From Candidatus Deianiraeaceae bacterium (GTDB lineage Bacteria; Pseudomonadota; Alphaproteobacteria; Rickettsiales; Deianiraeaceae), in NCBI GenBank assembly GCA_031537795.1, contig JAVKNF010000012.1:2620-66619 (forward strand): a stretch of 64,000 nucleotides of DNA, in the 5' to 3' direction. Positions 1-61,220 of the stretch are shown in pieces (the first letter of the stretch is position 1; every line of letters begins with the position of its first letter). The notes beneath the pieces are model-generated. The model did no database searches and was not told where the DNA came from. It worked only from the letters and a program-made list of their open reading frames with translations. The translations under genes and the position numbers were made by a program.

Positions 1-1316
1 TTCCTCTTGATTTAACAGAAGATTTTGCAAGAGTTAATAAAATCAAGATTGATATAAAGAAATTTAAAGAATTAATGGAAAATCAGAAAAATCTTGGAAA
101 AGCTAATCAAAAAATTATAAAAAATGATATAACAGCAGACTTTACAAATCATTTAAAAGAAAATTTTAAACCTAATGAAAAACTTTATTATGATAATCTG
201 ACTCAAAATAATGCTTCCCTGATTGGCATTTTTGATTTAAACTTTAAACAAAAAATTTATGTGAAAAATGAAGAATGTTATATTTTATTAGATAAGACCT
301 GTATTTACCCAGAGGGAGGTGGTCAAGTTTGCGATGAAGGTTTTATTTTTTTTAGAGAAAAAAATGAAAGCTGTAAAATTCTTCACACAATAAAGGTTGG
401 AGAATTTATTCTGCATAAGATTTTAATAATAAACGAGATTAAAATAAAATGCCAAGTCGAAGTTCAATCTTTAAGAAAGAATGTGTCTGCAAATCATACG
501 GCAACTCATATTTTACAAGCTGCTTTAATTAAAATTCTAGGAAAAGAAGTTCAACAAAAAGGCTCAAGCGTAAATGAAAGCGGTTTAAGATTTGATTTTT
601 CATACTCTGGGCAAATCTCAGAAATAAAAAAATTAGAAATTGAAAATAAAATCTGTGAGATTATTAAAGATTCTTTACCAGTCTATATTGAAGAAAAAAA
701 TATAGAAGACGCAAAAAAAACTGGAGCTCTCGCCTTTTTTGACGAAAAATATGGAGATAAAGTCCGAGTAATTTCAATCTTAAATAATAATCTAAACTTT
801 AAATCAATTGAGTTGTGTGGCGGAACACATATCAAAAATACCAAACAAATTGGTGATTTCTATATTTCAAAATGCTCTTCAATTGGATCAGGAGTTATTA
901 GAATTGAAGCTGTGACAGGTGAAATTGCCACGATTCAAAAAAATGAAACTCTAAAATTAAACAAGGAACTTGAAGAAATGAAAAAAGAAAATTTACATAA
1001 CAATAAAAAAATAACAGAGCTGGAATGCGAATTAGGAAAAACAAAAATTGAAGGAATAGCAAATAATGAATTTCAATTGAAAGTTGTGAATTATTCTAGA
1101 GATTCCCTATTAAAAATTGCTAACAATTTTAAAAATGAAAGAAACGGAATTTTAAAGATTTTCAATAAAGATACAACCACAAATAAAACATTTGTGATTT
1201 TTGCAAAATCTAAAAATAACACAGAATATGATTGCAAAAAAGAATTATTAGAATTTCTAAAAGACAAAAACGGAAACGGAGGTGGAAATAATGAAATGGC
1301 TCAAGGAAGTTTTTAA
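1..1316 (+). CDS. alaS: alanine--tRNA ligase, C-terminal part (5' end lies outside the window)
   Basis: The frame is open from the window edge (PLDLTEDFARVNKIKID..). Editing-domain motifs NHTATHILQAAL and ELCGGTH are present, followed by a C-terminal oligomerisation/DHHA1-like tail. Confidence 0.85.
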   Translation, partial: PLDLTEDFARVNKIKIDIKKFKELMENQKNLGKANQKIIKNDITADFTNHLKENFKPNEKLYYDNLTQNNASLIGIFDLNFKQKIYVKNEECYILLDKTCIYPEGGGQVCDEGFIFFREKNESCKILHTIKVGEFILHKILIINEIKIKCQVEVQSLRKNVSANHTATHILQAALIKILGKEVQQKGSSVNESGLRFDFSYSGQISEIKKLEIENKICEIIKDSLPVYIEEKNIEDAKKTGALAFFDEKYGDKVRVISILNNNLNFKSIELCGGTHIKNTKQIGDFYISKCSSIGSGVIRIEAVTGEIATIQKNETLKLNKELEEMKKENLHNNKKITELECELGKTKIEGIANNEFQLKVVNYSRDSLLKIANNFKNERNGILKIFNKDTTTNKTFVIFAKSKNNTEYDCKKELLEFLKDKNGNGGGNNEMAQGSF

Positions 1317-2175
1317 TATAAAGAATTACAGCTTAAAAATACTTTATATTTTTGGAGTATTTTGCGGTGTGTTTGGGACTGTTCTAATAAAATACCTAGG
1401 AATTTCAAAATTACTAACTGTTAACGAGATAATATTTTTCAGGGCTTTATTAGGTTTTCTTATTATTCTTCCTTTTTGTTATAAGGAGATCTTTATAATA
1501 AATTTTAGAAATAAATTTAATAAAAAATCTTTATTTTTCTTTTTTATCTTGCAAATTTTTTCAATCTGTAGCACTTATTCTTGGCATTATGCAATACAGT
1601 TAATTCCTGTAAATAATGCAATTTTAATATCATATCTTGGGCCTATTTTTACATCTTTATTAGCATATTTATTTTTCAAAGAAAGCATAAAATTCAATAA
1701 AATAATTCTTTTATTTTTAAACATAATTTTAATCTCTTTAATTTATAAATTTCAAAAAGATAATTTTAAAATAGCCTATATATTTATTATGTTTGATGTA
1801 TTTTTATTTTACGGAATGATAGCTATTTGTAGTAAAAAATTAAAAGAATTTTCTACAAATTTTTTAATTCTCTCTAGATTCTTTTTTTTAATCCCATTTT
1901 CTCTTCTATTTTTAAAAAAATTATCAACTCCAACAATTAAAAACTTTACTCTAATAACAATTTTAACTATAACTGCTACAATTCAAAGATTTTTATTTAC
2001 ATATACTTATCAGAAATCTGGAATATCATCATTTCAACATTTTAAATATTTCAGTGTAGTGTTTTCAATAATTTTAAGCTATATTTTTCTTTCCGAAGGT
2101 CAAAATATCAAAACAATTATTAGTGTTTTTTTCTTGTTATCTGTAAATTATCTTTATGAAAAATATTCTAAATAG
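1282..2175 (+). CDS. DMT/EamA-family membrane permease (substrate unknown)
   Basis: A 297-aa protein that is almost entirely hydrophobic helices (about 10), matching EamA size and topology. It ends in TAG. No specific motif was recognised. Confidence 0.55.
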   Translation: MEIMKWLKEVFNIKNYSLKILYIFGVFCGVFGTVLIKYLGISKLLTVNEIIFFRALLGFLIILPFCYKEIFIINFRNKFNKKSLFFFFILQIFSICSTYSWHYAIQLIPVNNAILISYLGPIFTSLLAYLFFKESIKFNKIILLFLNIILISLIYKFQKDNFKIAYIFIMFDVFLFYGMIAICSKKLKEFSTNFLILSRFFFLIPFSLLFLKKLSTPTIKNFTLITILTITATIQRFLFTYTYQKSGISSFQHFKYFSVVFSIILSYIFLSEGQNIKTIISVFFLLSVNYLYEKYSK

Positions 2176-5100
2176 AAGAAATATGAGGAATTTTATTAAG
2201 ATTAATTAAATTAATTTTAGCTGTACTTGAATTACTGGAATTAATTAAATCTGTACTCGAATTTACTAAATTATTATTAAAAATATTAGAATTCGAAATA
2301 AAAATAGCTGCCACTGAAAACAAAATCAAAACCGCTATTAAGATTACAAGAGAATCATTATCTTTTTCTTTCGTGAGGTCTGCATCTTGAGGTTCGGAAG
2401 CGGTATTTAATATTTGAAAACTATTCTCATTTGGCTGTATATAATTATTTCTAAACTTTTTAATAGGTTTAAAAATATAACTCTCGGAAGCTTTTATTTC
2501 CTCTTTTCGACCTCGAAAAAATATCTTTTTTTCATTTTCTTCATTTTTAAATCTATCTTTTGAGAAATCGTAAATATCTTGCTTATCTTTTTCAAAAGAA
2601 TCAGGACTGAAAGTAAAAGATCTTTGCCCTTCTTTTATAGGAATATTTTTATTTTTGTTGTTGATTTTTTCTTTAGTTTTCTTCTTAATTTCTCCTTGTA
2701 TTTTTTTATATTCCTCAAAAACATCCATAATTGAAGATAATTGCTCTGTTTTGATTTTTTTAGCAATTTTTTCTTTTCCTATTAAATCTAACACATTTTC
2801 AATTTTTAGATCTTGGTCTTTCAATAAATCTTTAGTCTTCTCTTCAATTCCTCCGTCATCTTTTAAATCTTCTGTTATAGGAGACAATATAGAAGCTAAA
2901 TCTGCTCTTAATTTTGAAGTTTTAAGATCTAAAATAGAAGAATTTTTAGGGTTAGGAAATACTGATTTGTTAACAGGAGGATTAGCGTGTTCTTCTTTCT
3001 TAAATTCTTCAGCTAATTTACCAGCTTTAGATATTAAGATTTCTTTCTTAATATCTTCTGGGTTTTTATTCTTCTCTTTAATATCTCTTATCACGAACCC
3101 TATATAAATTTTATTGTTATTTTCATATTTATCTCTAAAATTTTTATCTGCAATAAAAGATACCGTGTTTCTCTCTGCTTGATAATTCAATCTTTGAGCT
3201 CCATCATTCTGTAAATTTCTTACAATTATATCAAATAATTCTTTAGACGTATCATGTTCAGATTCTAATTTAATTTCAAATTTATTAAAACTAATATGAC
3301 AAAATGATATTCCGTAGCTTTTCAAATTTTCTATCATTCTTTCAGAAGGAAAATTTATTTTTATTTTCTCTTTTTTGTTTTTTAGATCCTGCAGATTGAC
3401 CACACCTTCTGACGTAATTCTTTTTGGTGCATTTCTAGTTTCTTGATTCTGTTGATCTGCCAGATCTTCTATTTCCGCTTCTTTATAGAATTTCTTAAGC
3501 CCTATTTTAGAATAGGTATAGACTCTTTCTTTAAGATCGTAATATTCTTTAAATTTATCTTTATCTTTGAATTCTAAATCAAGAACATTTTGTTCTCCGT
3601 TAGAAGCACTCTTGATGATATGTTCTATGTTTAAAATTCTCTTCTCTTTCCCTGACAACTTCTCCCATTCATAAAGACTAGAATCAGCATCATCTTGATA
3701 ATCTTTGCTAGCTAAAGAAGATTTTAAAGATGATATATTAATATATTGCTCTGTAGATGGAATTAATCTCGAGTCTCCTTCGTTTAAATGTATTTTTGCT
3801 TCAACGTTAACATTTCCATTCTTTACGGTTTTACTAAATGTTACAGGGAATCTATACTTTACAGTTTGCTCTACCTGAATTTGAGTATCTACATAATCTT
3901 TATTTTTTATACAAAAATTTTCTCTCTCTTGTAAATTACTAAATGTTATTATTTTCCGACTATCTCCATTTCTAAAATTCCTTACATTAAAATGAGAAAC
4001 ATCTAAAACACCAGAATATAAAACCTCAAGAGGGTTCAGATAATCTGCATAAACTTTAAATTCCTTATATCCTCTATTATCAGGGTCTGGTGTTTCTTCC
4101 TTCCAACTATTTGTTTCCAAGATACCAGTTAAAATAAAAAGATTTTCTTCTGATTTATATTTTTCTTTTTCTCTATTTTCTAAATTCTCAATATAAATTT
4201 CTTTATAACCTAAAACAGAACCTCCATCAACTGAACTTACTTTATTATTTAAGACAATCGAAATAGGCTTCTCGGTCAAAGATTCCAAGACTGATTCAAA
4301 GTCTACAACATTTCTATCTGAATCAATCGTACTTGTTGTTGATTTATCTTCTGGGTTTTCTTGTTTTGATTTATAATTTTCTTCAACTCTTGATCTGATA
4401 TCTTCTATATCTTTGATGTATTTTTCTTTCAGGCAAGCTTCATTTACTAATAATTGAGGAAGAATCCTATTACATAACGCAACATGTAAAAGATTTAAAT
4501 CTTCTGGGTTTTCAGTAAAAAGTATATCTTTATAATCTTGTTGAAATTGCGAGAAGATTATTTTTGAATTTTCTATTAAAGAGCTTTCATTTTCCGCATC
4601 AAATTTTTTATTATTGTTTATCACCTCTTTTAATAAAATTAAATAATATAAAGTTAATTTGTCAAAAATTCTTGATTTCTTTCTTTTTTCTCTAGCGGTT
4701 TCAACTGTTTTTTTGCTATTTTTTTCATAGCATTCTTTTATAGCTTCGAAAGCATTTTTAGATCTATAGTTATCACTTTTATTATCTTTTAACAATGTAT
4801 ATGTATCTCCTTTTGCACCTCTTCTACCAGATCTACCTAGTACTTGAATATATTCTCTCCAAGTAATATCTTTTGCACAATTTATTATCATCAAACCATC
4901 TTTATGTCTAGGCTTCCAATCTGTTCCCCTTCCAACTAAACCAGTACCTATAACTATAGAGTTATTTTTCATTACTTCTTCTATTTTTCCCTCTCTTTCT
5001 TTATCTGTTTCTTTTCCTGTTATTTCTATAACACTGCCTCCAATCAATTTTTTAATTTCTTTTAAATGATTAATATTGTCAACAATTATCAAAACTGGTT

Positions 5101-8100
5101 GAAGTTTTCCATTATCGTTTCTTCTTTGTTCTTTTAAAATGTGTTTTAAATTTTTTTCAAAATCTTCATCACTTTCAGCAAAATAAGGACATATATCTTC
5201 TCTTTGAAAAGGTTGAGAAATTGGAATCTGAATTGTATCTATATTACTAAACTTTAATTCTGCTTCAGTTCCTAAAGTCCCTGAAATTCCCATACAGGAA
5301 TTTGAATACTCTAACAATTGAGCTATAGAACCCTTTGTATAAGTATTTGTTTGTTTTTCTTGTATAAAAATTTCATTTTTCTCTCGTTCTAAATGTTTTG
5401 TTAAAGTTTGATGAACATAATCTCCCCATTTCCCTGAAACCAATTCACCTGTAGATTTTGATATAATTTTTACAATTTTTCTTTTTACTTCAAAACCATT
5501 TTCAAAAGAATTCGCTTCAATAATTGCATAATCTTTATCTTCTATTAAATGTTTTATTTTATCTCTTGCTTTAAGCATTCTTGTTATTTGCTCTTCTGCT
5601 TTCTCTTCATTACCAAATATTTTAGTCAGGCCTGCGTATAAATCTTTCGGAATTAATTCTATCAATTGCTTTGAATCTTTAATATTTTCTGTTCCTGTAG
5701 TTGATTTGATTTTATCTATATAATAAATAATATCTGATATTAATTTGTCTGCATTGCTTTCATTTTCGCAAGTTGCTTGCCATACAGTGCCTGCAAAATC
5801 TATAGATGTATCGACTTCGTCTAATAAAGTGAACATCTTATCTCTCTTTGCAATATTTCTTCTTTCTAATTCACATTCCTCAAATCTTTTATCTTCTAAT
5901 AGAAAAAATATATCTGAAGGAATTCCATAAAATATACAGGGTTTTTTATTTAGAAGTTCTTTTGTTTTGGTTAAATTACCGGAGCCTACAACAGAGGTAT
6001 TTTCTATTCCTATAAAGTTATAAAATTCTTTGCTTTCTCGTAATCCTGCTCTTGCCAAGTCTGAAGTTGAAGATGTTAAAAAAGTTGTATTCTGTGTTAA
6101 AGCTTTAAATGCAGCTGTTATACCTCCTATTACTGTTTTGCCCTGCCCTGTTGATATCTCTAGATTTACTTTTGTGGTTTCTTCCTCTGTTCCTAAAATT
6201 ATAGAGCTAATTTGCATTAAATCTGGGTATATTTTACCTGAAACTCTATAATAGCTTTCAAATAATAAGGCATATAATTCAGTTTTAGCTCCAGCTTTTG
6301 TATAAGCGTTTCCACCTGAAGAAGAAAGAACTGTAGAGCAATGTTTTATTTTTTTCTGAATCTCAACATCTGTTAAATTGTATACTTCTTCGGCTATTGC
6401 ATTTATAGAGTAGATTCTATTTTTCAAACTCTCAACTAAATTAGGGTCTTTTTTGCCATATAATTTTTTTAATAAATCAACAAACCCTATTTGATGCAAG
6501 GAATTGTCTTTTTTAAAATTTCTTTTGCCGTTTTTATTTCTCTGCCATCTTCTAGTCAAACTTTCTAGTTCAATATTTACTCTCTCTCTTTCTTTTTGAT
6601 ATTCTATTTTATTGGTTTTATATCTTTCTACTTTATCTTTCATTTTTTGAGAGAAAAAATATTCATTATTATCTAAAAGATTCTTTAAAAAACTATCAAA
6701 TACTTCTTTGCCTAAAGCTTTCGTTTTGAAAAACTCTTCAATTGTATACCCGATAAAATGATTGCTTCTTGAGCCTATAAATTCTTTAAAAGTTTTCTTT
6801 TTATTGTCAGACGGATCTAATACAAGAAGATCACCAATGTATTGACTCTTTATATTATTATAAATTGCACTATATCTTGTAATATCAGATAAAACATAAG
6901 TAAGATTTTCCGTTGCAACCAATTCTAGTTGATCTTCCCTAACAGGGCATATTGGTCTTATTAAAAATGTAATTTTATCATATATTGAATTAAAAAAATC
7001 TCTTTTTTTGCTATCACTTTTTAGAGATTCTATTATTGTCTGCTTTAAATCAGGTGTATAACCTGAATAATTAAGTACTGTTTTTATTTTTTCAAGTAAT
7101 TCTTTACCTGATTCGATATCTCCAATCTCTTCAGATTTTAAGAATCCAATTAATATATCTTTATACTGTAAATATTCTTCTGTAAATAATTTATAGAAAA
7201 ACCCTAAATTTTGCTCACTATAGATTCTTTCTAAATCATCTTTATTTAATTTTTTTGCTTCCGAATTAATAAGTTCTATAAGTTGGATGTAAGTCTTAAT
7301 AGATATTTCTTTAGTATCTGGATTATTACACGATACGAGCAATGCAGAAAGTGCATTAAATTTTTGACCTTCTACAAATAAAGCAAGATGTTCTTTAAAA
7401 ATTAATGGGTTATATTTTATTTTTCTACTTCTTAATTTAGATTCAATAGTCTCAATAATCTTAATATGCTTTTGAATTTCATTTATATTGTTGCCTTTTA
7501 GAATTACTCTTTTTTGTTCAAAAGTTAAATATTTTGAATTGTAAATTATAAGATCTGCATCTTTTTCTTTAGTTGAAATCAGTAAATTATAATCAAAAAA
7601 TAGAGGTTTTACAGCTCTATTTTTTTCATAAAGTGTATTAATGTATTTTAAATTATCTTCTTTTGTTGCTTCTTTTAAACTATTAACAATTTCAATTACT
7701 CTGTTTGGTTCATTTTTATATATATTAAAAGATAAAGCTAATTTATTTAAGATGAAATCATTTGATGCTTGATTATTAGAAGAATAAACTAGATCACGAA
7801 TTTCTTCTAATTTGCATTTTTCAGAATGAGATAAAACTTTACCTCTTAATTCAAATGTTCTTATAAATACTAGGTTAAAAAGATCTTTTTTAATTTTATC
7901 ATCTTGATTTCCACTATATACAATAAAGATTCCTGTAGATAAGCTATGTATTTTGAAATCTGGATAATGCATTAATATATTTCTTATGCTTTCTCCTTCG
8001 TTGAAGAAATATGCTCCATTTTCACCTGATATTTCGATGCAATTTTGGCTGAAATTAAACTCTCTAATATTTTCTGGAATATCTGAATCACTTTTCAACT

Positions 8101-11100
8101 TATATTTAAATATATCTTTAGGAATATCTTTCAACTCAGGATTCGAAAGTGAGAATGTACAAGCTACAATTCTTTTCTCTATTTCAGTGTATTTTTTATT
8201 TTTGTTATTTATTAAATTTTTGATATATTCTATTTTATCTAATATGTTAACATTTTTATTATTTTTTTTATTATTTAAAACTCTTAAATTATGAAATATT
8301 ATCTTCCAAGGAAGCCATTCGTGATTTGTTACTGAGCTTTCCCTAAAGATATCATTAATAACATCAAGGAATCTTTTATTATCTCTTATTAGAATTAAAA
8401 TATTCAACAAATCATCAAAAGGCGGGTTCAGAAAATGTAATTTATTTAGCAATTCTTTTACAGCTTCAGTATTAATATCTCTTTTTCTTATTTTCCTTAT
8501 TTCTTCTAATACAAAGTTCTCATCTTTTATTACAGGGAACTCAATTAATAATTTTAATAAATCTATTGAAACATCCTCATCTTTTTCTAGAACTTTACAA
8601 ATCTTCAAGCCTGTCTCCAAGCTCATTTTTATTCTCGGCTCCCCAGTAATAGTTTTTGTGGCTAAATGTCTTAAAAATAAAGCTTGCAACTCCTCAAAAG
8701 AGGCAACTTTATTTCTTGGGTTTGTACTTGATATTGAATCTTGCAATGTTTTTAAACTAACTTTATATGTAAATTCTCCTTTTTCTTCGAGCCTTCTTCT
8801 GTCTTTAAATAACATTTCAGGATAGATGGAATCAAATTTATCATATTTCATTGCATAATACAATGAATTATCTGAACTCAAATCTATAGAGCCATTCAAA
8901 CAATTATCTAAAAATTCCTGATCTTTCATTATATCTTTAGTTTTACGTCTTTTTTTCATTAAATCCAGAATATCTAAAATTCTAAACAAGAAAGATTCTG
9001 GGTTTTTGATATCTTCTGAAATGTTAATTGTACCTAACACTAAACCTCTTTTTTTTATTTCATTAATGAAGGATGCAAAAGATCTAAATAATGCAAAATC
9101 ATTAGATTTTTTAAGTAATGCTTTATACAATTCAGCGTTGTTACCAGTTATATCTATCATTCCATAAAGCTCATTAACATAACCTTCTGCAATAGTATCT
9201 TTTATTGTGTATATATCTCTCGTTATCAATCTTAAATTTTGATTCCCAAGGTATAATTTATTACTTAGATTTTCAGGAATCTTTTTAATTTTTTCAATCT
9301 TTTTAACTTGAAAATCCTTAACTTTACATCTCCTTCTAAAGGTTGGTCTTAAATTATATCTTTGATTGATTGAAACCTTTCTTGCGTCATAATCTAGAAT
9401 TAATTTTTCACCACTTTTTACAAAATAAAAACCCTGTGGCAATGCATTTTTACAAATATTACCACTGAAGGAACCTTTCTCTCTGTGTGTTAATAAAATT
9501 GATAAAGCTTTTTTTGTTATAGAAGTAATCTTTTTTTGAAAAATAAATCCTTCTTCTTCTTCTGTATGACCTACGATATCATCGTAAAACTCTTTCAAAG
9601 AAACATCAGAGTGTCCTGATCTGTCCAATTTATCTCTTAATTTTTGAGAAATTTGCAATTTTGTTTTAATATTTTTATCATTATAAACATTATTTATTGT
9701 ATTTCTCGTTACAAGATCTTCAGATTTAATTCCGCTACTTGATTCCTCTTCTTCTTCTTCTTCCTCTTCTTCTTCTTCTTCCTCTTCTTCTTGATTACAT
9801 TCCATTTCTAAATTCGGAATAATATTTTTGTGTATTTTGGAAAACTGCTCCTTTTGTTTAATTTTTTCTTGAGTTATCTTTTTTAATTCTTGCTCTGTTT
9901 CATCTGCCTCTAATTCAATTTTTTTATAATTTATATTGCTTGTTATTTCTTCTTGCTCTGGAATATTATATGGAAGTTCTTGAGATTTCCCAAAAATATC
10001 AATTTTCACACTAAGTGGCAATTTAAGATTATCAATTAAAGTTTTAATGCCATTTATTTTTTCTTCAGAAAGCCCTGGGGTGTTAATTTTCAAAACAACT
10101 CTTTGAAACCCTAGTTCTGTTAAAGATTTTAACATAGAGCTTACTTTTAGTTTTTCTTTGTTATTAAATTCTCTTGATATATCCTCGTATTCAATTATTA
10201 ATTCATTTATCGGTATCTTATTCTTTGTTATTTTGTTTTCTTTTTGTTTTTTTACAATATACTCTAGTTGTCTTTCTAATCCACTTTCCTTGTTTGGCCT
10301 TATAGTTAAACTATCTATATGTGAAGCCTGATTTTCTATTGCAGCTTCAAGAAAATATCTTATTCCGAGTGAATCTCTCGGTATTTTTAAATATATATCC
10401 TTTTTTCCTTCATCTGAAATATTTAAAGAAGCATTTCTGTATTCTATATCAAAAAGCCCGTAGAATAAATCTTTAAAATTAGTATAATCTTTTCCTGTTT
10501 CTCTTTCTTGAACCGCTTTCACGGTTTGAGCAATTGATTTATATCTTGATGTGGAGCATTTTTCTAAAAATAAATCTTTATATTTAATAACAAAATTACA
10601 AAGCATCTCCTCTAATTCTGGCTCTAAAGTTTCAGGTAACATTAAATTAATTTCATGTTTCTTTTCAGTAAATCTATAGAATTTAGTATAGATGATATTA
10701 TTTTTTTCTTTGTGTATAACATTAATATTTACTATATCTTCAGTATTTATGATATACTCCAGCATTGATATTTTAATAGATAATATATCTTTTTGATTTG
10801 AAAATCCTGTAGTATCAAACCCAGATAAAGCGCCAAAAGTAGATTTATATCTTTTTTCTTCATACAATAAACCGTTCAAATGTTTAATTAAATTTCTCTC
10901 TGGGTGATATTTTTCTTTGTTCGATATAGGAAATATAAAATCTGACAGAGTAACCGCAGAAAAAGGCATTTTTATTGCATTTCTTATTTCATTTTCTTTC
11001 TGGTTAATATCTAACATCTCTAAAAAGGGATAATCTTTAATAAGAGTTTCAAATTCATCATCATTTAATTCTTGACTCTTGAAAGATTCTAAATTCGTTC

Positions 11101-23969: not shown

Positions 23970-25190
23970 ATGAAGTCAAAAAATCTTGGTTTCAATTTAT
24001 TAAAAGATACAGTTATCACTAATAAAATAGTTTTTTTAAGATGCGATCTAAATATGCCAATAAAAAACGGAGAAATAATAGATGATTCAAGATTAATGTA
24101 TGCAATGGATACAATAAAATATCTTATAAAAAATGGCTCTAAAATTATTCTAGGTACGCATATCGGAAGGCCAAATGGAAAATTCGACGAAAAATATTCA
24201 ACTAAAATTATAGCAGATTATCTTAATAAATTTGTTAAATCAGACGTTTATTACGTTAATACTTTAAGTGGAGAGAAAGTCGAAAATGCAATTAAAAAAA
24301 TGCATTATGGCGATATTTTAGTTTTAGAAAATTTGAGATTTGACTCAAGAGAAGAAAGTTGCGATACAACTTTTGCACAAGAGTTATCTAATTTTTGTAA
24401 TTTATATGTGAATGAAGCTTTTTCTTGCAGTCATAGAGCTCACGCTTCTATACTAGGGATTCCTTTATTTATAAAACCTGTTGCAGGTTTAAGATTTGAA
24501 GAAGAGGTTGAATTTCTAACAAAAGTTACAAAAACAAATTTAAACCCAAAAACTACAATCATTGGAGGAAGTAAAATATCAACAAAAATTGATGTTTTGA
24601 AAAACCTAATACCAAAAATGAATAATATTTTTATTGCTGGAGCTATGGCGAATACCTTTATAGCAAGAAGTGGTTTCAATGTAGGAAAATCAATGATAGA
24701 AAAGAATTATTTTGAAACAGTTGATGAGATTAATAAACTTGCAGTAAGTTCTGGTTGCAACTTAATTATACCAAATTCTTTTCAAGTTGATAAAGATTTA
24801 ACTGGTAAAAATACAAAAATAAAATCAATTTCAGAAATAGAAAATGATGATATAATTCTCGATATTTCACCTGAATATATTGAAAATAAAATTGCTTCAA
24901 TTATTCAAGCTTCAAAATTAATTTTGTGGAACGGTCCACTTGGAATGTTTGAAGTGGAACCTTATCATTTAGGAAGTATTAAAATGGCAGAAATGATTGC
25001 TAAGAATAAAAATTGCATTTCAATTGCAGGAGGTGGAGATGTTATTGCGGCTATTGCAAAATCTAAAAAAACCAAAGATTTTTCTTTTATTTCAACAGCT
25101 GGAGGTGCGTTTTTAGAATTCATAGAGGGTAAAAAACTAGCTGGACTTGAAATTTTAAGAAGATTATCTTTGTTAGATAAACACGATTAA
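23970..25190 (+). CDS. pgk: phosphoglycerate kinase
   Basis: RCDLNMP..DDSRL, LGTHIGRP, NEAFSCSHRAHAS, GGGDV, STAGGAFLEF. Confidence 0.92.
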   Translation: MKSKNLGFNLLKDTVITNKIVFLRCDLNMPIKNGEIIDDSRLMYAMDTIKYLIKNGSKIILGTHIGRPNGKFDEKYSTKIIADYLNKFVKSDVYYVNTLSGEKVENAIKKMHYGDILVLENLRFDSREESCDTTFAQELSNFCNLYVNEAFSCSHRAHASILGIPLFIKPVAGLRFEEEVEFLTKVTKTNLNPKTTIIGGSKISTKIDVLKNLIPKMNNIFIAGAMANTFIARSGFNVGKSMIEKNYFETVDEINKLAVSSGCNLIIPNSFQVDKDLTGKNTKIKSISEIENDDIILDISPEYIENKIASIIQASKLILWNGPLGMFEVEPYHLGSIKMAEMIAKNKNCISIAGGGDVIAAIAKSKKTKDFSFISTAGGAFLEFIEGKKLAGLEILRRLSLLDKHD

Positions 25191-25192
25191 AC

Positions 25193-25200
25193 TATATTTT
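25193..25200. repeat. left copy of the 8-bp target-site duplication TATATTTT
   Basis: Identical to 29551-29558 and directly abuts the left terminal inverted repeat. Confidence 0.8.
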
Positions 25201-25223
25201 GGTAATTATACGCTTGACAATTA
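25201..25223 (+). repeat. left terminal inverted repeat GGTAATTATACGCTTGACAATTA
   Basis: Perfect 23-nt reverse complement of 29528-29550. The match continues imperfectly for about 10 more nt. Confidence 0.85.
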
Positions 25224-25427
25224 CAAATATTAAGAAAGATTAGAAAAGACAGGGCGGTGAAGGTTAAGAAATTTAGATTATTTTGAAAATTTAGAAATTT
25301 GTTTGTAAAGTTGCATTTTCCAAAATAACTGGATTTTTATAATTTTAACTTTAAATTTAATGCTTTCATAATCCTAAATTTATCAGATAATACTTAATTT
25401 TTATATAAAATATTATTTCATTTAATT

Positions 25428-27499
25428 ATGGTAGAGGAATTGGAAAACACAAAACCTATACATTTGTCAAAATATCATTTTTGGAAACTTGATATATCAA
25501 CTTTAAATCAATTAAGAAAAAAAGATTTTAGATATTAGCTTTTCATCTGAATTTTCAAATACAGATGGCATTGTTTATGATAAAAGAGGAAAATCATTAA
25601 AGTTGATTGTACAATGCAAATCAGCTCAAGAATTAAATTCTGAAGATAAAATACAAAAAGCAATTAAACAAGACATTGGATTTACAAAAGAAATTTGCAA
25701 AATTCTTGTTGTTACAGATTCTCAAAAAAGTTACTGGATTAATGCTTTAAACGGTCAATTTATATTGGATCTAGATTGTAATAAACTAAATTATGTTTTA
25801 GATACAGGAAAAACTTTGACAAAAGAAGAAATTAAAACAATAGAAAACTTAATAGACTCAATCAACAACTTCATCACAGCAGAAAATAATCAAATTCAAA
25901 GAAAAGATAAACTTGATCCATTTATTTTAGCAGAAGCAATCTGGCAAACCATATATGTAAATACTGGAAAAGACGCTACAAAATCTTTATATAATGTTGT
26001 TGAGTTATTTTTATTTAAGTTTTTAAGTGATATAGATGTTTTATAGGGCAGAAACAGCTTTAATTCTGTTTATGAAATAATTAGTCAAAAAACAGAAGGT
26101 AAAAAAGATAATGAAAAAAAATAAAACAACATCAAGAAGCATTAAAATCATATGCAGATATAAGAAAAAGAGTCAAAGAATTTTTTCCAGCAAATAAAAC
26201 TGATGGAACAACTATAATAAACGGAACTATTTTTGTAAACGAACAAGGTGAACCAATTATAACAAGGGCAACACTTTTTGCGGAAATTCTGGAAAAACTT
26301 TATGAATATGGACAAAAACACGACTCGTTTAAAAATATTAAAAGAGAATTTAAAACACGATTGTATGAAAATTTTTTAAGACAAAGCGCAGAAATCAGAG
26401 CATTAGGTCAATTTTTTACTACAAGAAATGCAGTAAAATCGATGGTTAAGATCTCAAACATTAAAAATCTTGGCGATAACGCTAAAATATGTGATCCATT
26501 CTGCGGAGTTGGTGGATTTTTACTTGAAGCGATCTTAGAAAATGAAAGCATATTGCAAAGATTTAAGCCAAAAAATGGAAACATTGATCCAAAAATAGAA
26601 ATTGTAGGTTTTGACAAAGGCGAAGAAAAAGACGAAGGAAGAACCATAATACTTGCAAAGGCTAATATGTTGATTTATTTTTCTGATTTAATTTCAGAAT
26701 ATCACGAAGAAGAGTATTTAAGGCTTTTCTCAACAGAGGTATTCAATAAAGTGTTTAGATTAATTAATAATAGCGACCTTGGAACTTTATCTTTACGAAA
26801 TGAAACAAAATGTGATTTAATATTAACAAATCCACCATATATAACAAGTGGATCAGGTTCAATTAAAAAAACAAATGAATATCAGGATTTAGATGATTAT
26901 TATAGCGTCGGTGGTCGTGGCGTTGAGGCTTTATCAATTGAATGGATTGTAAATAATCTAAAAGATGGAGGAGAGTTTTTAGTCGTGCTTCCTGATGGAT
27001 TATTAAACCAAAAAAAATTATAGAATTTTTTTTTAGAAAATGTAATATTTATGGTATAATTTCTTTGCCAGTTAGAACTTTTTATGCAATGCCAAAAAAG
27101 ACATATATTTTGATATTTAAAAAGAAGTTTGAGAATGAACCAAGGTTACAAACAAACGCTATATTTACTTATTTGGTTAGTGAAATAGGAGAAACAAGAG
27201 ATGCCAAAAGATTTGAAACAGAAAAAAATAACCTATCAAAAATGGAGCGACTATTTAATCAATTTAAAGGCTACCCAAATAAAGAATTTTCTTTTGAAGA
27301 TAAAAGATGTAAAATTTATACTGTGCAAGAAATTTTAGAAAAACTTAATTTATTGTGCGATAGATGGTGATCGGATGAAGAAAAGAAAGAACTTAGAATT
27401 AAAGATGACAATAATGAAATGAACGAGGAAGAGTTTTTAACTTTTGTAGACAAAATTTTTGAAGATATTAACTCTTTTAAGGAATATGCAAATGTTTAG
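25428..27499 (+). pseudogene. fused PD-(D/E)xK-like nuclease / gamma-class N6-adenine DNA methyltransferase (BcgI-A-like), inactivated
   Basis: Motifs LFLFKFLSD, LGQFFTTRNAVK (motif X), DPFCGVGGFLLEA (motif I), LTNPPYITSG (motif IV) and IISLPVRTFY. Lesions: frameshifts in A7 (25517-25523), A7 (26114-26120) and A8 (27010-27017), an in-frame TAG at 26044-26046 and an in-frame TGA at 27368-27370. Confidence 0.8.
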
Positions 27500-28556
27500 A
27501 GAAGTAGATATTTTTGAGATTTACAATTTTCCAATTAAAGGAAAACCAATTTATACAACAACTTTTATCAATAATAGGGGCATTTATCGAGTTTATTCTG
27601 CGAAAACATCTGGTGATGGCAGTATTGGAAATATAAACTCTTACGGAAAAAATATTGAATGTTTGACAATCACAACCAATGGATATGCTGGATATGTTTT
27701 TCACAGAGAAAGGCATAAATTCAATATAAATTCTGATTGTTGTATCATTATAATCAAATCTAGTATGTTAAATAAAATTGATTATAAATATCTAAAGATA
27801 GAAATAGGTAATGCTTTATATGCTATGAGTCTCGGCTGGGACAACAAATTAACAAATGAAAAATGGTAGAATGTTAAAATCCATATTCCGATAACTCAAG
27901 CAGGCGAATTTGATATGCAAAAACAAAAAGAAATAGCAAAGAGATTTGAATTAATTAAAAAAATACAAAATAGAATAACAGAGGCTTATAATGTTGTAAA
28001 GAAAGCTAATGTTGTACTCCAGAAGCAAGAAAATATAGAATATACTGAATATGAATTAAGCAATAATGAAATATTTAGAACATCAATAGGTGATCGTATT
28101 TTAAAAAAAGATGTTAAGCAAGATGGTATTCCTATGTACAGTGCGAATGTTCTTAAGCCATTTGGCTTTAGTAATGATATAAAATATGAAATTTTTGAGA
28201 AACCAGTTATTATTTGGGGAATTGATGGCGATTTTAATTATAATATCATACCAGTTAATACAAAATTTATTCCAACCGATCATTGCGGAGTTTTAGAAGT
28301 TAATTCTAATGAAATTGATATTGAATGTTTTTTATACGAATTAAAAGCGACAAAGCTACAATATGGTTTTGATAGAACATACCGAGCTTCACTTGAAAAT
28401 ATAAAAAATGTTAGTGTCAAAATTCCAAAAGATATACAAACACAAAAAATAATAGCTCAAAAATATAAAATTATTGAGAAAATACAAAATCATTTAATAG
28501 AAAATTTAAAAATACTAAAAGACTGTATTATAATTCCAAATTTTTTAGAAAATTAA
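27486..28556 (+). pseudogene. RM specificity (S) subunit with two target-recognition domains, one in-frame TAG
   Basis: The two halves are each followed by a conserved helical spacer (QKEIAKRFELIKKIQNRI and QKIIAQKYKIIEKIQNHL). The ORFs 27459-27869 and 27915-28556 are in the same frame, separated only by the TAG at 27867-27869. The start overlaps the end of the methylase reading frame. Confidence 0.7.
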
Positions 28557-29488
28557 ACCTTTCTTGTATATCTCCTCAAATCAAGCTCTTTCCCAGTCAA
28601 CATAGCATAAGTTAAGTTATTATTTGAAAACATAGACTGCATAGTATTCTCAAATCTTTCTGCAATCTCTAAACTTTTATTATTAAAATAAAATACAAAT
28701 GAATTTATATACTTATCTATATGAGCTTTTGTAATTTGACGATGTGTTCCGTATATTCTTCTTTTAAACAATCCGAAAGTTCCCTCAATATCGTTTGTTG
28801 TTGCATTTCCTCTTACGAACTCTCTTTCTGAATGATTAACAGTTTCCCTTTCGTAACCTTTATAAACTGGGCTTTCATCTGTAAATAATTTTGCTTCTTC
28901 TAATTCAATATATTTATCTAAAATAGGTTTTATATTTTTAATATTAGTTTTATTTATGTATTTTATAGCTAATGTTTTTTTCTTTCTAAAACAACCTACT
29001 ACAACCATTTTATTTTTACCACTTTGCAACCCTTCTCTTCTTTCTGAAGAATGTTTATTTCCTTCTTTTCCTTCTAAATACGTCTCATCAATTTCAACAT
29101 CACCAGTCATTTTTTCAATAGTGTTTTTTTTTAAAGCCAAACGGATTCTTTGGAGCATAAACCAAGCTGTGGCTTGTCTAACTCCGATATTTTTTGCCAA
29201 TTGACAAGAACTTATGCTTTTAGCTCCTGAAATTTCAAAATAAAAAGCATTAAACCATTTTACAAGCGATAAGGCTGAATCTTCAAATATAGTTCCTTTT
29301 CTAATTGTAAATTCTCTTTTACAATGACCGCAAGCATACAACCCAGCTTTTGCGAATTTATAAGATTTGTCTGTATTCTTACAAAGTGGACATACTGGCT
29401 TGTTATTCCATCTTAATTTTTCTAAGTATCTAATACATTTTATTTCAGTTGAAAAGTTTTTTTGAAATTCTAATAAGTTTTTAAACAT
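28553..29488 (-). CDS. IS1595-family DDE transposase (apparently intact)
   Basis: N-terminal zinc ribbon CPLCK..CGHCKREFTIRKGTIFEDS, WFMLQRIR, IDETY, FTDESPVYKG, NDIEGTFGLFKRRIYGTH. 311 aa. Confidence 0.85.
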   Translation of the reverse strand: MFKNLLEFQKNFSTEIKCIRYLEKLRWNNKPVCPLCKNTDKSYKFAKAGLYACGHCKREFTIRKGTIFEDSALSLVKWFNAFYFEISGAKSISSCQLAKNIGVRQATAWFMLQRIRLALKKNTIEKMTGDVEIDETYLEGKEGNKHSSERREGLQSGKNKMVVVGCFRKKKTLAIKYINKTNIKNIKPILDKYIELEEAKLFTDESPVYKGYERETVNHSEREFVRGNATTNDIEGTFGLFKRRIYGTHRQITKAHIDKYINSFVFYFNNKSLEIAERFENTMQSMFSNNNLTYAMLTGKELDLRRYTRKV

Positions 29489-29508
29489 AATTTGTCTTTA
29501 TATTCATT

Positions 29509-29537
29509 AGTATAAACTAATTATTTATAATTGTCAA
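29509..29537 (-). promoter_or_regulatory. candidate transposase promoter, with the -35 inside the right IR
   Basis: On the minus strand, TTGACA (29537-29532), a 17-nt spacer and TATACT (29514-29509). This lies about 20 nt upstream of the transposase ATG at 29488. Confidence 0.45.
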
Positions 29538-29550
29538 GCGTATAATTACC
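29528..29550 (-). repeat. right terminal inverted repeat
   Basis: TAATTGTCAAGCGTATAATTACC, the exact reverse complement of 25201-25223. Confidence 0.85.
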
Positions 29551-29558
29551 TATATTTT
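29551..29558. repeat. right copy of the 8-bp target-site duplication TATATTTT
   Basis: Identical to 25193-25200 and directly abuts the right IR. Confidence 0.8.
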
Positions 29559-61196: not shown

Positions 61197-61220
61197 TAAT
61201 CAAGATTATTGATTTTGTTT

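Follow-up and report, generated by a model that had tools for sequence, protein, structure and literature searches.

We analyzed a 64,000-nucleotide stretch of contig JAVKNF010000012.1 from a Candidatus Deianiraeaceae bacterium (hereafter the window), in which a 4,350-bp unit (positions 25201-29550) lies between pgk and the next gene. The unit has perfect 23-bp terminal inverted repeats (IRs) and is flanked by two identical octamers that we read as copies of a target site duplication (TSD). Inside the IRs are two overlapping pseudogenes related to restriction-modification (RM) genes and, on the opposite strand, an apparently intact gene for a transposase of the IS1595 insertion sequence (IS) family (Table 1). 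An earlier note, made from the sequence of this stretch, had described the unit as a complete IS1595-family transposon carrying an RM system, and the analyses below bear on that description.

Using a pattern search that allowed up to three mismatches, we found only these two IR copies in the window, and no match in 100 dinucleotide-preserving shuffles of it. In a repeat search, the 23-bp pair was the longest inverted repeat of the region, with a weaker similarity that runs inward to ~33 nt. Identical 8-mers at the same spacing occur at 3 of 59,634 window positions (5e-5; 8e-5 expected from base composition). These coordinates and shuffles confirm the earlier claim that the IRs are exact reverse complements bracketed by identical octamers. 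The outer sequence of the element ends is GGTAATTAT. When the element is removed together with one octamer (25201-29558), the pgk stop codon (25188-25190) and the next ATG (29603) are separated by a 54-nt spacer, and the empty site reconstructed in this way reads CACGATTAAACTATATTTTACTTGCAATT. The element is thus as cleanly delimited around its passenger genes as had been proposed.

We found no IR-like site near the 3′ end of the transposase gene, where the best candidate had 10 mismatches in 23 positions. Because the octamers bracket the full 4,350 bp and no IR lies near that 3′ end, we take the whole 4,350 bp to be the unit that moved. It contains one transposase copy and no internal repeats, and its composition is the same as that of the host. 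An Rfam scan of the window returned two tRNAs only, neither of them in the element. We also compared the window to an independent assembly. The Logan short-read assembly of run SRR25831488 (contig L001) matches the window without a single difference for 14,662 nt, covering the left junction and all of the passenger region. Together, these data make it very likely that positions 25201-29550 are a single 4,350-bp IS1595-family transporter insertion sequence (tIS), inserted as a unit between pgk and the next gene.

Table 1. Features of the window element and of related elements. Positions refer to the window unless a contig is named; L numbers are contigs from metagenomes.
Feature	Position	Length	Strand	Remarks
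Left TSD copy, TATATTTT	25193..25200		.	Identical to 29551-29558
Left terminal IR, GGTAATTATACGCTTGACAATTA	25201..25223		+	Weaker similarity inward to ~25233
Fused PD-ExK nuclease/gamma-class N6-adenine methyltransferase pseudogene (BcgI-A-like RM)	25428..27499	~691 aa repaired	+	
HsdS-like specificity pseudogene, two target-recognition domains	27492..28556	354 codons	+	8-nt overlap with RM gene end
IS1595-family transposase, apparently intact	28553..29488	311 aa	-	Pfam, NCBIfam, invariant residues
Promoter-like site, -35 TTGACA, 17-nt spacer, -10 TATACT	29509..29537		-	11/12 match, best in 4.8-kb region
Right terminal IR	29528..29550		-	Exact reverse complement of left IR
Right TSD copy, TATATTTT	29551..29558		.	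Identical to left octamer
Second IS1595 element	61209-63116		+	Zinc-ribbon open reading frame (ORF) 61209-61721, DDE ORF 61727-62104
L010 element, Pelagibacterales metagenome-assembled genome (JGI 3300020183; also L011)	7020-11144 of L010	4,125 bp		Between clpX and bolA
L005/L006/L007/L014 element		4,097 bp		Duplication GAAGTTTT; C5 methylase and HNH protein
L013 element		2,742 bp		Duplication AAATTTTC; N4/N6 methylase
L016 element		2,860 bp		Duplication ATTTTTAA; 613-aa HATPase_c_3 protein, convergent
L008 element		1,874 bp		Imperfect duplication, imperfect IRs; helix-turn-helix (HTH) protein
L015 element		Partial contig		Duplication not seen; small ORF and M78 peptidase, convergent

Judged from its profile matches and conserved residues, the 311-aa protein is an IS1595-family transposase, in agreement with the earlier reading of an intact gene. 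It matched the zinc ribbon PF12760 (E = 9e-13) and DDE_Tnp_IS1595 (PF12762; E = 4e-25, 152 of 153 profile positions), and NCBIfam NF033547 (IS1595) scored it at 153 bits against a cut-off of 75. The zinc-ribbon cysteines C33, C36, C53 and C56 are conserved, and the catalytic residues are D134, D204, E235 and K242, the last of which lies seven residues after E235. When aligned with 18 relatives (37-78% identity), the window transposase keeps all of the 40 columns that are invariant in the 19 family members.

The ATG of the transposase gene (29488) sits 62 nt in from the outer end of the right IR, and the -35 hexamer of the promoter-like site upstream of it falls within that IR. This promoter is predicted, as a sigma-70-like consensus match, and the same TTGACA/TATACT layout is kept in two metagenome relatives, L015 and L016. 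The proposal that the IR supplies a -35 box for the transposase therefore stands at the level of the best consensus match in the region and its conservation in these relatives. At the other end of the gene, the transposase and the specificity pseudogene converge, their stop codons overlapping in the palindrome TTAA (28553-28556), with zero intergenic bases and no terminator between them. L015 and L016 share this abutting or overlapping convergent layout.

The passenger measures ~3.1 kb, all of it within the IRs, and in three-frame translation its coding capacity is split over five ORF fragments. When repaired, the first pseudogene encodes a 691-aa protein, which can be aligned over its full length with intact proteins of 684-686 aa (57-60% identity); such proteins are widespread among bacteria. 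In 64 intact RM homologues, the methylase motif NPPY and an N-terminal nuclease motif, P-D-G ... E-Y-K, show no variation. In an AlphaFold model of an intact homologue (pLDDT 86), the methylase part was closest to Type I HsdM by fold search, and the model aligned over ~630-700 columns with BpuSI (Type IIG), BsaXI (Type IIB) and DrdV. BsaXI was reached by the fold search only and not by sequence or profile searches of the PDB. The assignment of the nuclease domain rests on the invariant motif and on this fold alignment of the homologue.

The second pseudogene was matched twice by Methylase_S (E = 7e-22) and aligns with intact 357-aa partners in two metagenome contigs, L010 and L012. We found no HsdR-like ORF in the window element, nor in the intact units of L010 and L012, and a Type I RM system is excluded by the lack of an HsdR translocase-nuclease subunit in all three. 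By descent, the passenger is thus best described, from sequence and modeled fold, as a former two-gene RM system of the BcgI/BsaXI type (Type IIB/IIG-like). The intact homologues nearest to the passenger (59% identity) lie at positions 338-3894 of L012, a 4.9-kb contig without a transposase. Upstream of them in that contig is a 79-aa HTH_3 gene that may encode a controller, and a HicB gene is nearby; no remnant of an HTH controller was found in the 200-nt leader of the window passenger.

We next list the lesions of these genes. The RM gene contains three frameshifts, located at an A7 run (25517-25523) and at two A8 runs (26114-26121 and 27010-27017), and two in-frame stop codons, TAG at 26044-26046 and TGA at 27368-27370, the latter in place of the second Trp of a conserved DRWWS. 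One in-frame stop (TAG, 27867-27869) interrupts the specificity gene. In the nuclease motif, E-Y-K has become Q-C-K, so that the catalytic Glu is replaced by Gln and the next Tyr by Cys; in BcgI, an E53A mutant is nuclease-dead (PMC3592470). Of 232 columns that are otherwise invariant, the window RM protein departs from its homologues at 37, as compared to 8-19 departures in comparable intact homologues. All passenger lesions recur in the independent assembly L001.

A reading under genetic code 4 (TGA = Trp) is excluded for this host: TGA serves as the stop codon in 7 of 45 host genes, and host genes are unbroken under code 11. For this reason we regard the TGA at 27368 as a true nonsense codon. 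Sequencing error or phase variation at the A runs is excluded as a full explanation by the recurrence of the lesions in the independent assembly, the TAG stops and the excess of substitutions. On the evidence of its reading frames, with six frame-breaking lesions and the Glu-to-Gln change, the passenger RM system is dead. The earlier note was therefore right about the kind of genes that the ~3.1-kb passenger holds, and its description of them as an RM system does not extend to an intact one. The departures are concentrated in the nuclease part (window 25428-26120; 22 of 72 columns, 31%, in the first 230 residues) as compared to the remaining methylase part (26115-27499; 15 of 160, 9%). Since the nuclease part has decayed the most, it is probable that restriction was lost before methylation.

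From the anatomy of the element, which is observed, and the chemistry of the IS1595 family, from which we infer the remaining steps, we propose the following route of transposition. The transposase would be transcribed from the promoter with its -35 box in the right IR, and its N-terminal zinc-ribbon region would bind the 23-bp IRs. The DDE center (D134, D204 and E235, with K242 following) would then cleave at the GG termini, and the cleaved ends would be joined to a target opened by an 8-nt stagger, repair of which would produce the TATATTTT duplication. All DNA between the IRs would be carried along, and the RM system, while it worked, would have protected the host and stabilized the element. 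With the transposase and both ends intact, the element may still move.

The host genome provides a second example of an IS1595 element. The window has a G+C content of 26% and is densely coding. No protein on record is more than 58% identical to its GyrA, and the matches that bear names are metagenome-assembled genomes of Rickettsiales and Alphaproteobacteria. The largest ORF of the window, of 3,124 aa, is uninterrupted (2168-11542, minus strand). The earlier note had considered the genome otherwise streamlined, but it is not otherwise free of elements of this kind: a decayed IS1595 element with a Bro-N passenger lies at 61209-63116. The transposase of this second element (61209-62104) is 32-45% identical to the first and is probably a pseudogene, as read from a frameshift that divides it into two ORFs. 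After it come a Bro-N-domain ORF (62108-62800) and a 100-aa ORF that repeats the last residues of the former (LGEEKD); going by this repeat, the two ORFs may be one split passenger. We found no convincing terminal repeats for this element.

We searched for relatives of the window transposase in several collections. The best relatives in annotated genomes, plasmids and phages are less than 41% identical to it, and transposases from metagenomes are up to 79% identical. Phages, both cultured and deposited, hold relatives at 34-35% identity only, and a scan of viral contigs returned no match. A search of JGI metagenomes with the IR pattern yielded one locus, a copy of the L005 element. Six metagenome relatives have ends of the form GGTAAT-N6-CTTGACAATT, and all six carry passengers. 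In these relatives an end lies ~60 nt upstream of the transposase gene and recurs, inverted, beyond at least one passenger gene. Perfect 8-bp duplications mark four independent insertions, namely the window element, L005/L014, L013 and L016. Therefore, the ends are correctly placed and the clade makes 8-bp duplications, as had been said of the IS1595 family in the earlier account of this locus.

Within positions 1-13712 of its contig, the L005 element lies among genes of phage type (replication initiator, RusA, SocA/Panacea and methylase), and the contig of another close relative of the transposase, P0007, holds lysozyme, AntA, HNH and helicase genes together with two adjacent IS1595 transposases. 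Given these gene neighborhoods, at least some transposase relatives are in phage-like DNA. We tentatively raise the possibility that these elements form an undescribed clade of IS1595 tIS, with GGTAAT-N6-CTTGACAATT ends, an IR-built promoter and, in every member found to date, a passenger (mostly for DNA modification or defense), at least some of them in phage-like DNA of AT-rich aquatic bacteria; the IS1595 family may have captured RM modules repeatedly, and phages could have been the shuttle into reduced symbiont-like genomes.

To place the insertion in time, we looked for its empty site and for further copies. A pgk-based search of JGI metagenomes found no empty site and no relative of the host. 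Exact look-up of the 96-aa protein encoded downstream returned only contigs that start inside the transposase, again with no empty site. A scan of genome contigs with the transposase gave relatives at 30-41% identity only, in a collection that lacks the host genome. Because neither an empty site nor a close host relative was found, a recent insertion is unproven; the earlier view of a fairly recent insertion rested on the perfect ends only, and the passenger has been decaying for some time. The exact transposase protein has one copy on record, in the NCBI source contig; look-ups found no other record, and none in Logan. We found no publications on the two sequencing runs that contain the locus, SRR25831488 and SRR25831493.

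Contig L001 stops within the transposase gene at 28631 and contig L009 (SRR25831493) at 29463, whereas both IR/flank junctions are crossed without a break. Judged from contig ends and not from reads, transposase-like sequence may be repeated or polymorphic in these samples, and an empty-site allele is probably not abundant in them. We also estimated what neutral drift would have done to the transposition parts at the lesion density of the passenger. The transposase gene (933 bp) should then have taken approximately two disabling hits, and the 62 bp of IRs and duplication approximately one change; none was seen in either. Either selection on the transposition parts or decay of the passenger before the last hop could account for this, and the joint chance under drift in place (~0.05, from rough arithmetic) does not separate the two.

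These estimates bear on a reading in which the whole element is an inert fossil, which held a working RM system at insertion and has drifted in all its parts since then, transposase and ends being intact by luck. We consider this rather unlikely. It would account for six disabling passenger lesions and many substitutions at conserved positions, it fits the single recorded transposase copy in the source assembly, and the clearly decayed second IS1595 element 32 kb away indicates that such elements erode in this host genome. However, luck of this kind has only the low joint chance given above, every family-invariant residue of the transposase has been kept, and contigs of two independent short-read assemblies stop within the gene, as repeated or polymorphic sequence would cause. 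The opposite reading, a working mobile RM system whose breaks are assembly errors, phase-variable tracts or readthrough under an alternative code, is largely refuted and in our judgment highly improbable. All three frameshifts do fall in A7-A8 homopolymers, which are typical sites of error and phase variation, and the TGA takes the exact place of a Trp in the homologues, which is how an organism with code 4 would translate it. Yet the same lesions appear in an independent assembly of a different run, and the use of TGA as a terminator in host genes that are whole under code 11 speaks against readthrough. Two TAG stops and the Glu-to-Gln change lie beyond slippage, three separate tracts would need to be 'on' together, and the substitution excess at invariant positions points to relaxed constraint.

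Two further readings concern the integrity of the unit. The position of the transposase gene at one extreme end, with the passenger on the opposite strand, could suggest an IS of ~1 kb beside a resident, decaying RM locus, in which case the left IR would be unrelated or solo and the RM genes would not be passengers. This is scarcely credible, since the octamers bracket the 4,350-bp unit and not the transposase gene alone, nothing like an IR was found at the 3′ end of that gene, the transposase and specificity genes abut with overlapping stop codons, and both L015 and L016 have convergent passengers inside their IRs, L016 with a perfect duplication. A chimeric assembly that joined two copies of a repeated IS across the transposase gene is suggested by the Logan contigs of two runs, which end in this gene and show that short reads alone do not bridge it. 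We give this very little weight, because the same octamer is present on both flanks and an ordinary pgk-to-next-gene spacer is restored, both IRs are identical, and the transposase ORF is unbroken across the gap. We therefore return to a single tIS with a dead RM passenger and potentially functional transposition parts as our preferred reading.

Several points weigh against this reading. The insertion is deduced from the octamer duplication alone, with no empty site or sister strain found. Ongoing activity is unproven with one recorded copy of the exact transposase, and the drift estimate of ~0.05 is, as stated, rough. The nuclease domain had no profile match in Pfam, NCBIfam or PADLOC. Finally, we know of no biochemical dissection of the IS1595 transposition mechanism.

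With these points in mind, the element is a clean, delimited case of an RM system carried as the passenger of a single-transposase IS, a route of RM mobility put forward in 2010 on the basis of a few cases. The later fate of such cargo is illustrated as well: in a small AT-rich Rickettsiales-like genome, the defense passenger has eroded, probably nuclease first, with the transposition parts left intact. For annotation, the five ORF fragments represent pseudogenes and not a working RM system, and the end signature (23-bp IR and 8-bp duplication) can be used to seek more copies. The element opens no new mechanism and answers no long-standing question.

We compared the element to known systems, beginning with the IS1595 family itself. 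We take the ISNwi1 group of the ISfinder table to have GGnnATTAT ends, a DDE...K signature and passenger sizes to ~4.7 kb; the window element agrees with this and may belong to that subgroup. Like tIS of the ISNwi1/ISNha5 type, it has a single transposase with a zinc ribbon and DDE_Tnp_IS1595, short IRs that start with GG, an 8-bp duplication, and passengers inside the IRs without a second IS copy. The passengers of ISNha5 are transcription regulators, in contrast to the RM system found here, and the nearest annotated transposases share less than 40% identity with that of the window. The features of the IS1595 family have been described, including an N-terminal zinc ribbon in all groups except IS1016 (PMC8101967). 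IS1595 transposases of Bacteroides are 32-38% identical to that of the window, and one Bacteroides element, ISBun1, has been assigned to the ISNwi1 group (PMC12382657). The term tIS, according to its citation in PMC11891212, was coined for passenger-carrying elements of the IS1595 family (Siguier, Gagnevin and Chandler 2009). As its passengers lie inside one IR pair with no second IS copy, the window element is a bona fide tIS. A composite transposon is excluded, as the unit holds one transposase gene and the next IS1595 homologue is 32 kb away and shows no relation to it in sequence.

The passenger genes can be compared to BcgI and BsaXI. In BcgI, both activities reside in the A subunit, and the B subunit is HsdS-like (PMC3592470). 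Shared with BcgI and BsaXI are a subunit that combines an N-terminal catalytic-Glu nuclease with a gamma-class adenine methylase (PMC3592470, PMC3592466, PMC11997821) as well as a second, HsdS-like subunit that has two recognition domains. With the RM chain of BsaXI, the likeness is one of fold (~630 aligned columns for the intact homologue) with no match at the level of sequence. The window system differs from both in that its methylase part is closest to Type I HsdM and its RM gene is a pseudogene.

Intact orthologues of both passenger genes are carried by the L010 element (57-58% protein identity for the RM gene and 49% for the specificity gene), an IS1595-family element with 24-bp IRs (CCCAATGTCCCATTAATAGGGAAA) and an 8-9-bp duplication, ATCTTCCA(A). 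However, the L010 transposase is 33% identical to that of the window, the IRs of the two elements are unrelated, and the L010 passenger lies on the transposase strand whereas that of the window is convergent. As BcgI-like RM and specificity genes thus occur in two lineages, with transposases 33% identical and unrelated IRs, this suggests that capture of RM modules by the IS1595 family may have been repeated and possibly favored.

The closest published counterpart is a unit in N. gonorrhoeae NCCP11945, which has IRs that match at 26 of 26 positions, an 8-bp duplication and three genes (Furuta, Abe and Kobayashi 2010, PMC2853133, Fig. 11b). These genes are a Type IIG RM homologue, a Type I S homologue that was compared with BcgI, and a gene with transposase motifs (PMC2853133). 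Perfect short IRs, an 8-bp duplication and the combination of RM, S and transposase genes are common to both units, and the RM gene is degraded in both, being truncated in NCCP11945 and a pseudogene in the window. The two differ in that the transposase-like gene of NCCP11945 was judged to be a likely inactivated derivative, whereas that of the window looks intact, and in that an empty site was available for the Neisseria unit and none was found for ours. This likeness is one of architecture, taken from the published description. By this analogy, the architecture of the window element is essentially that of the Neisseria unit published in 2010, and we conclude that the window element adds a further member to a kind of element that was already known.

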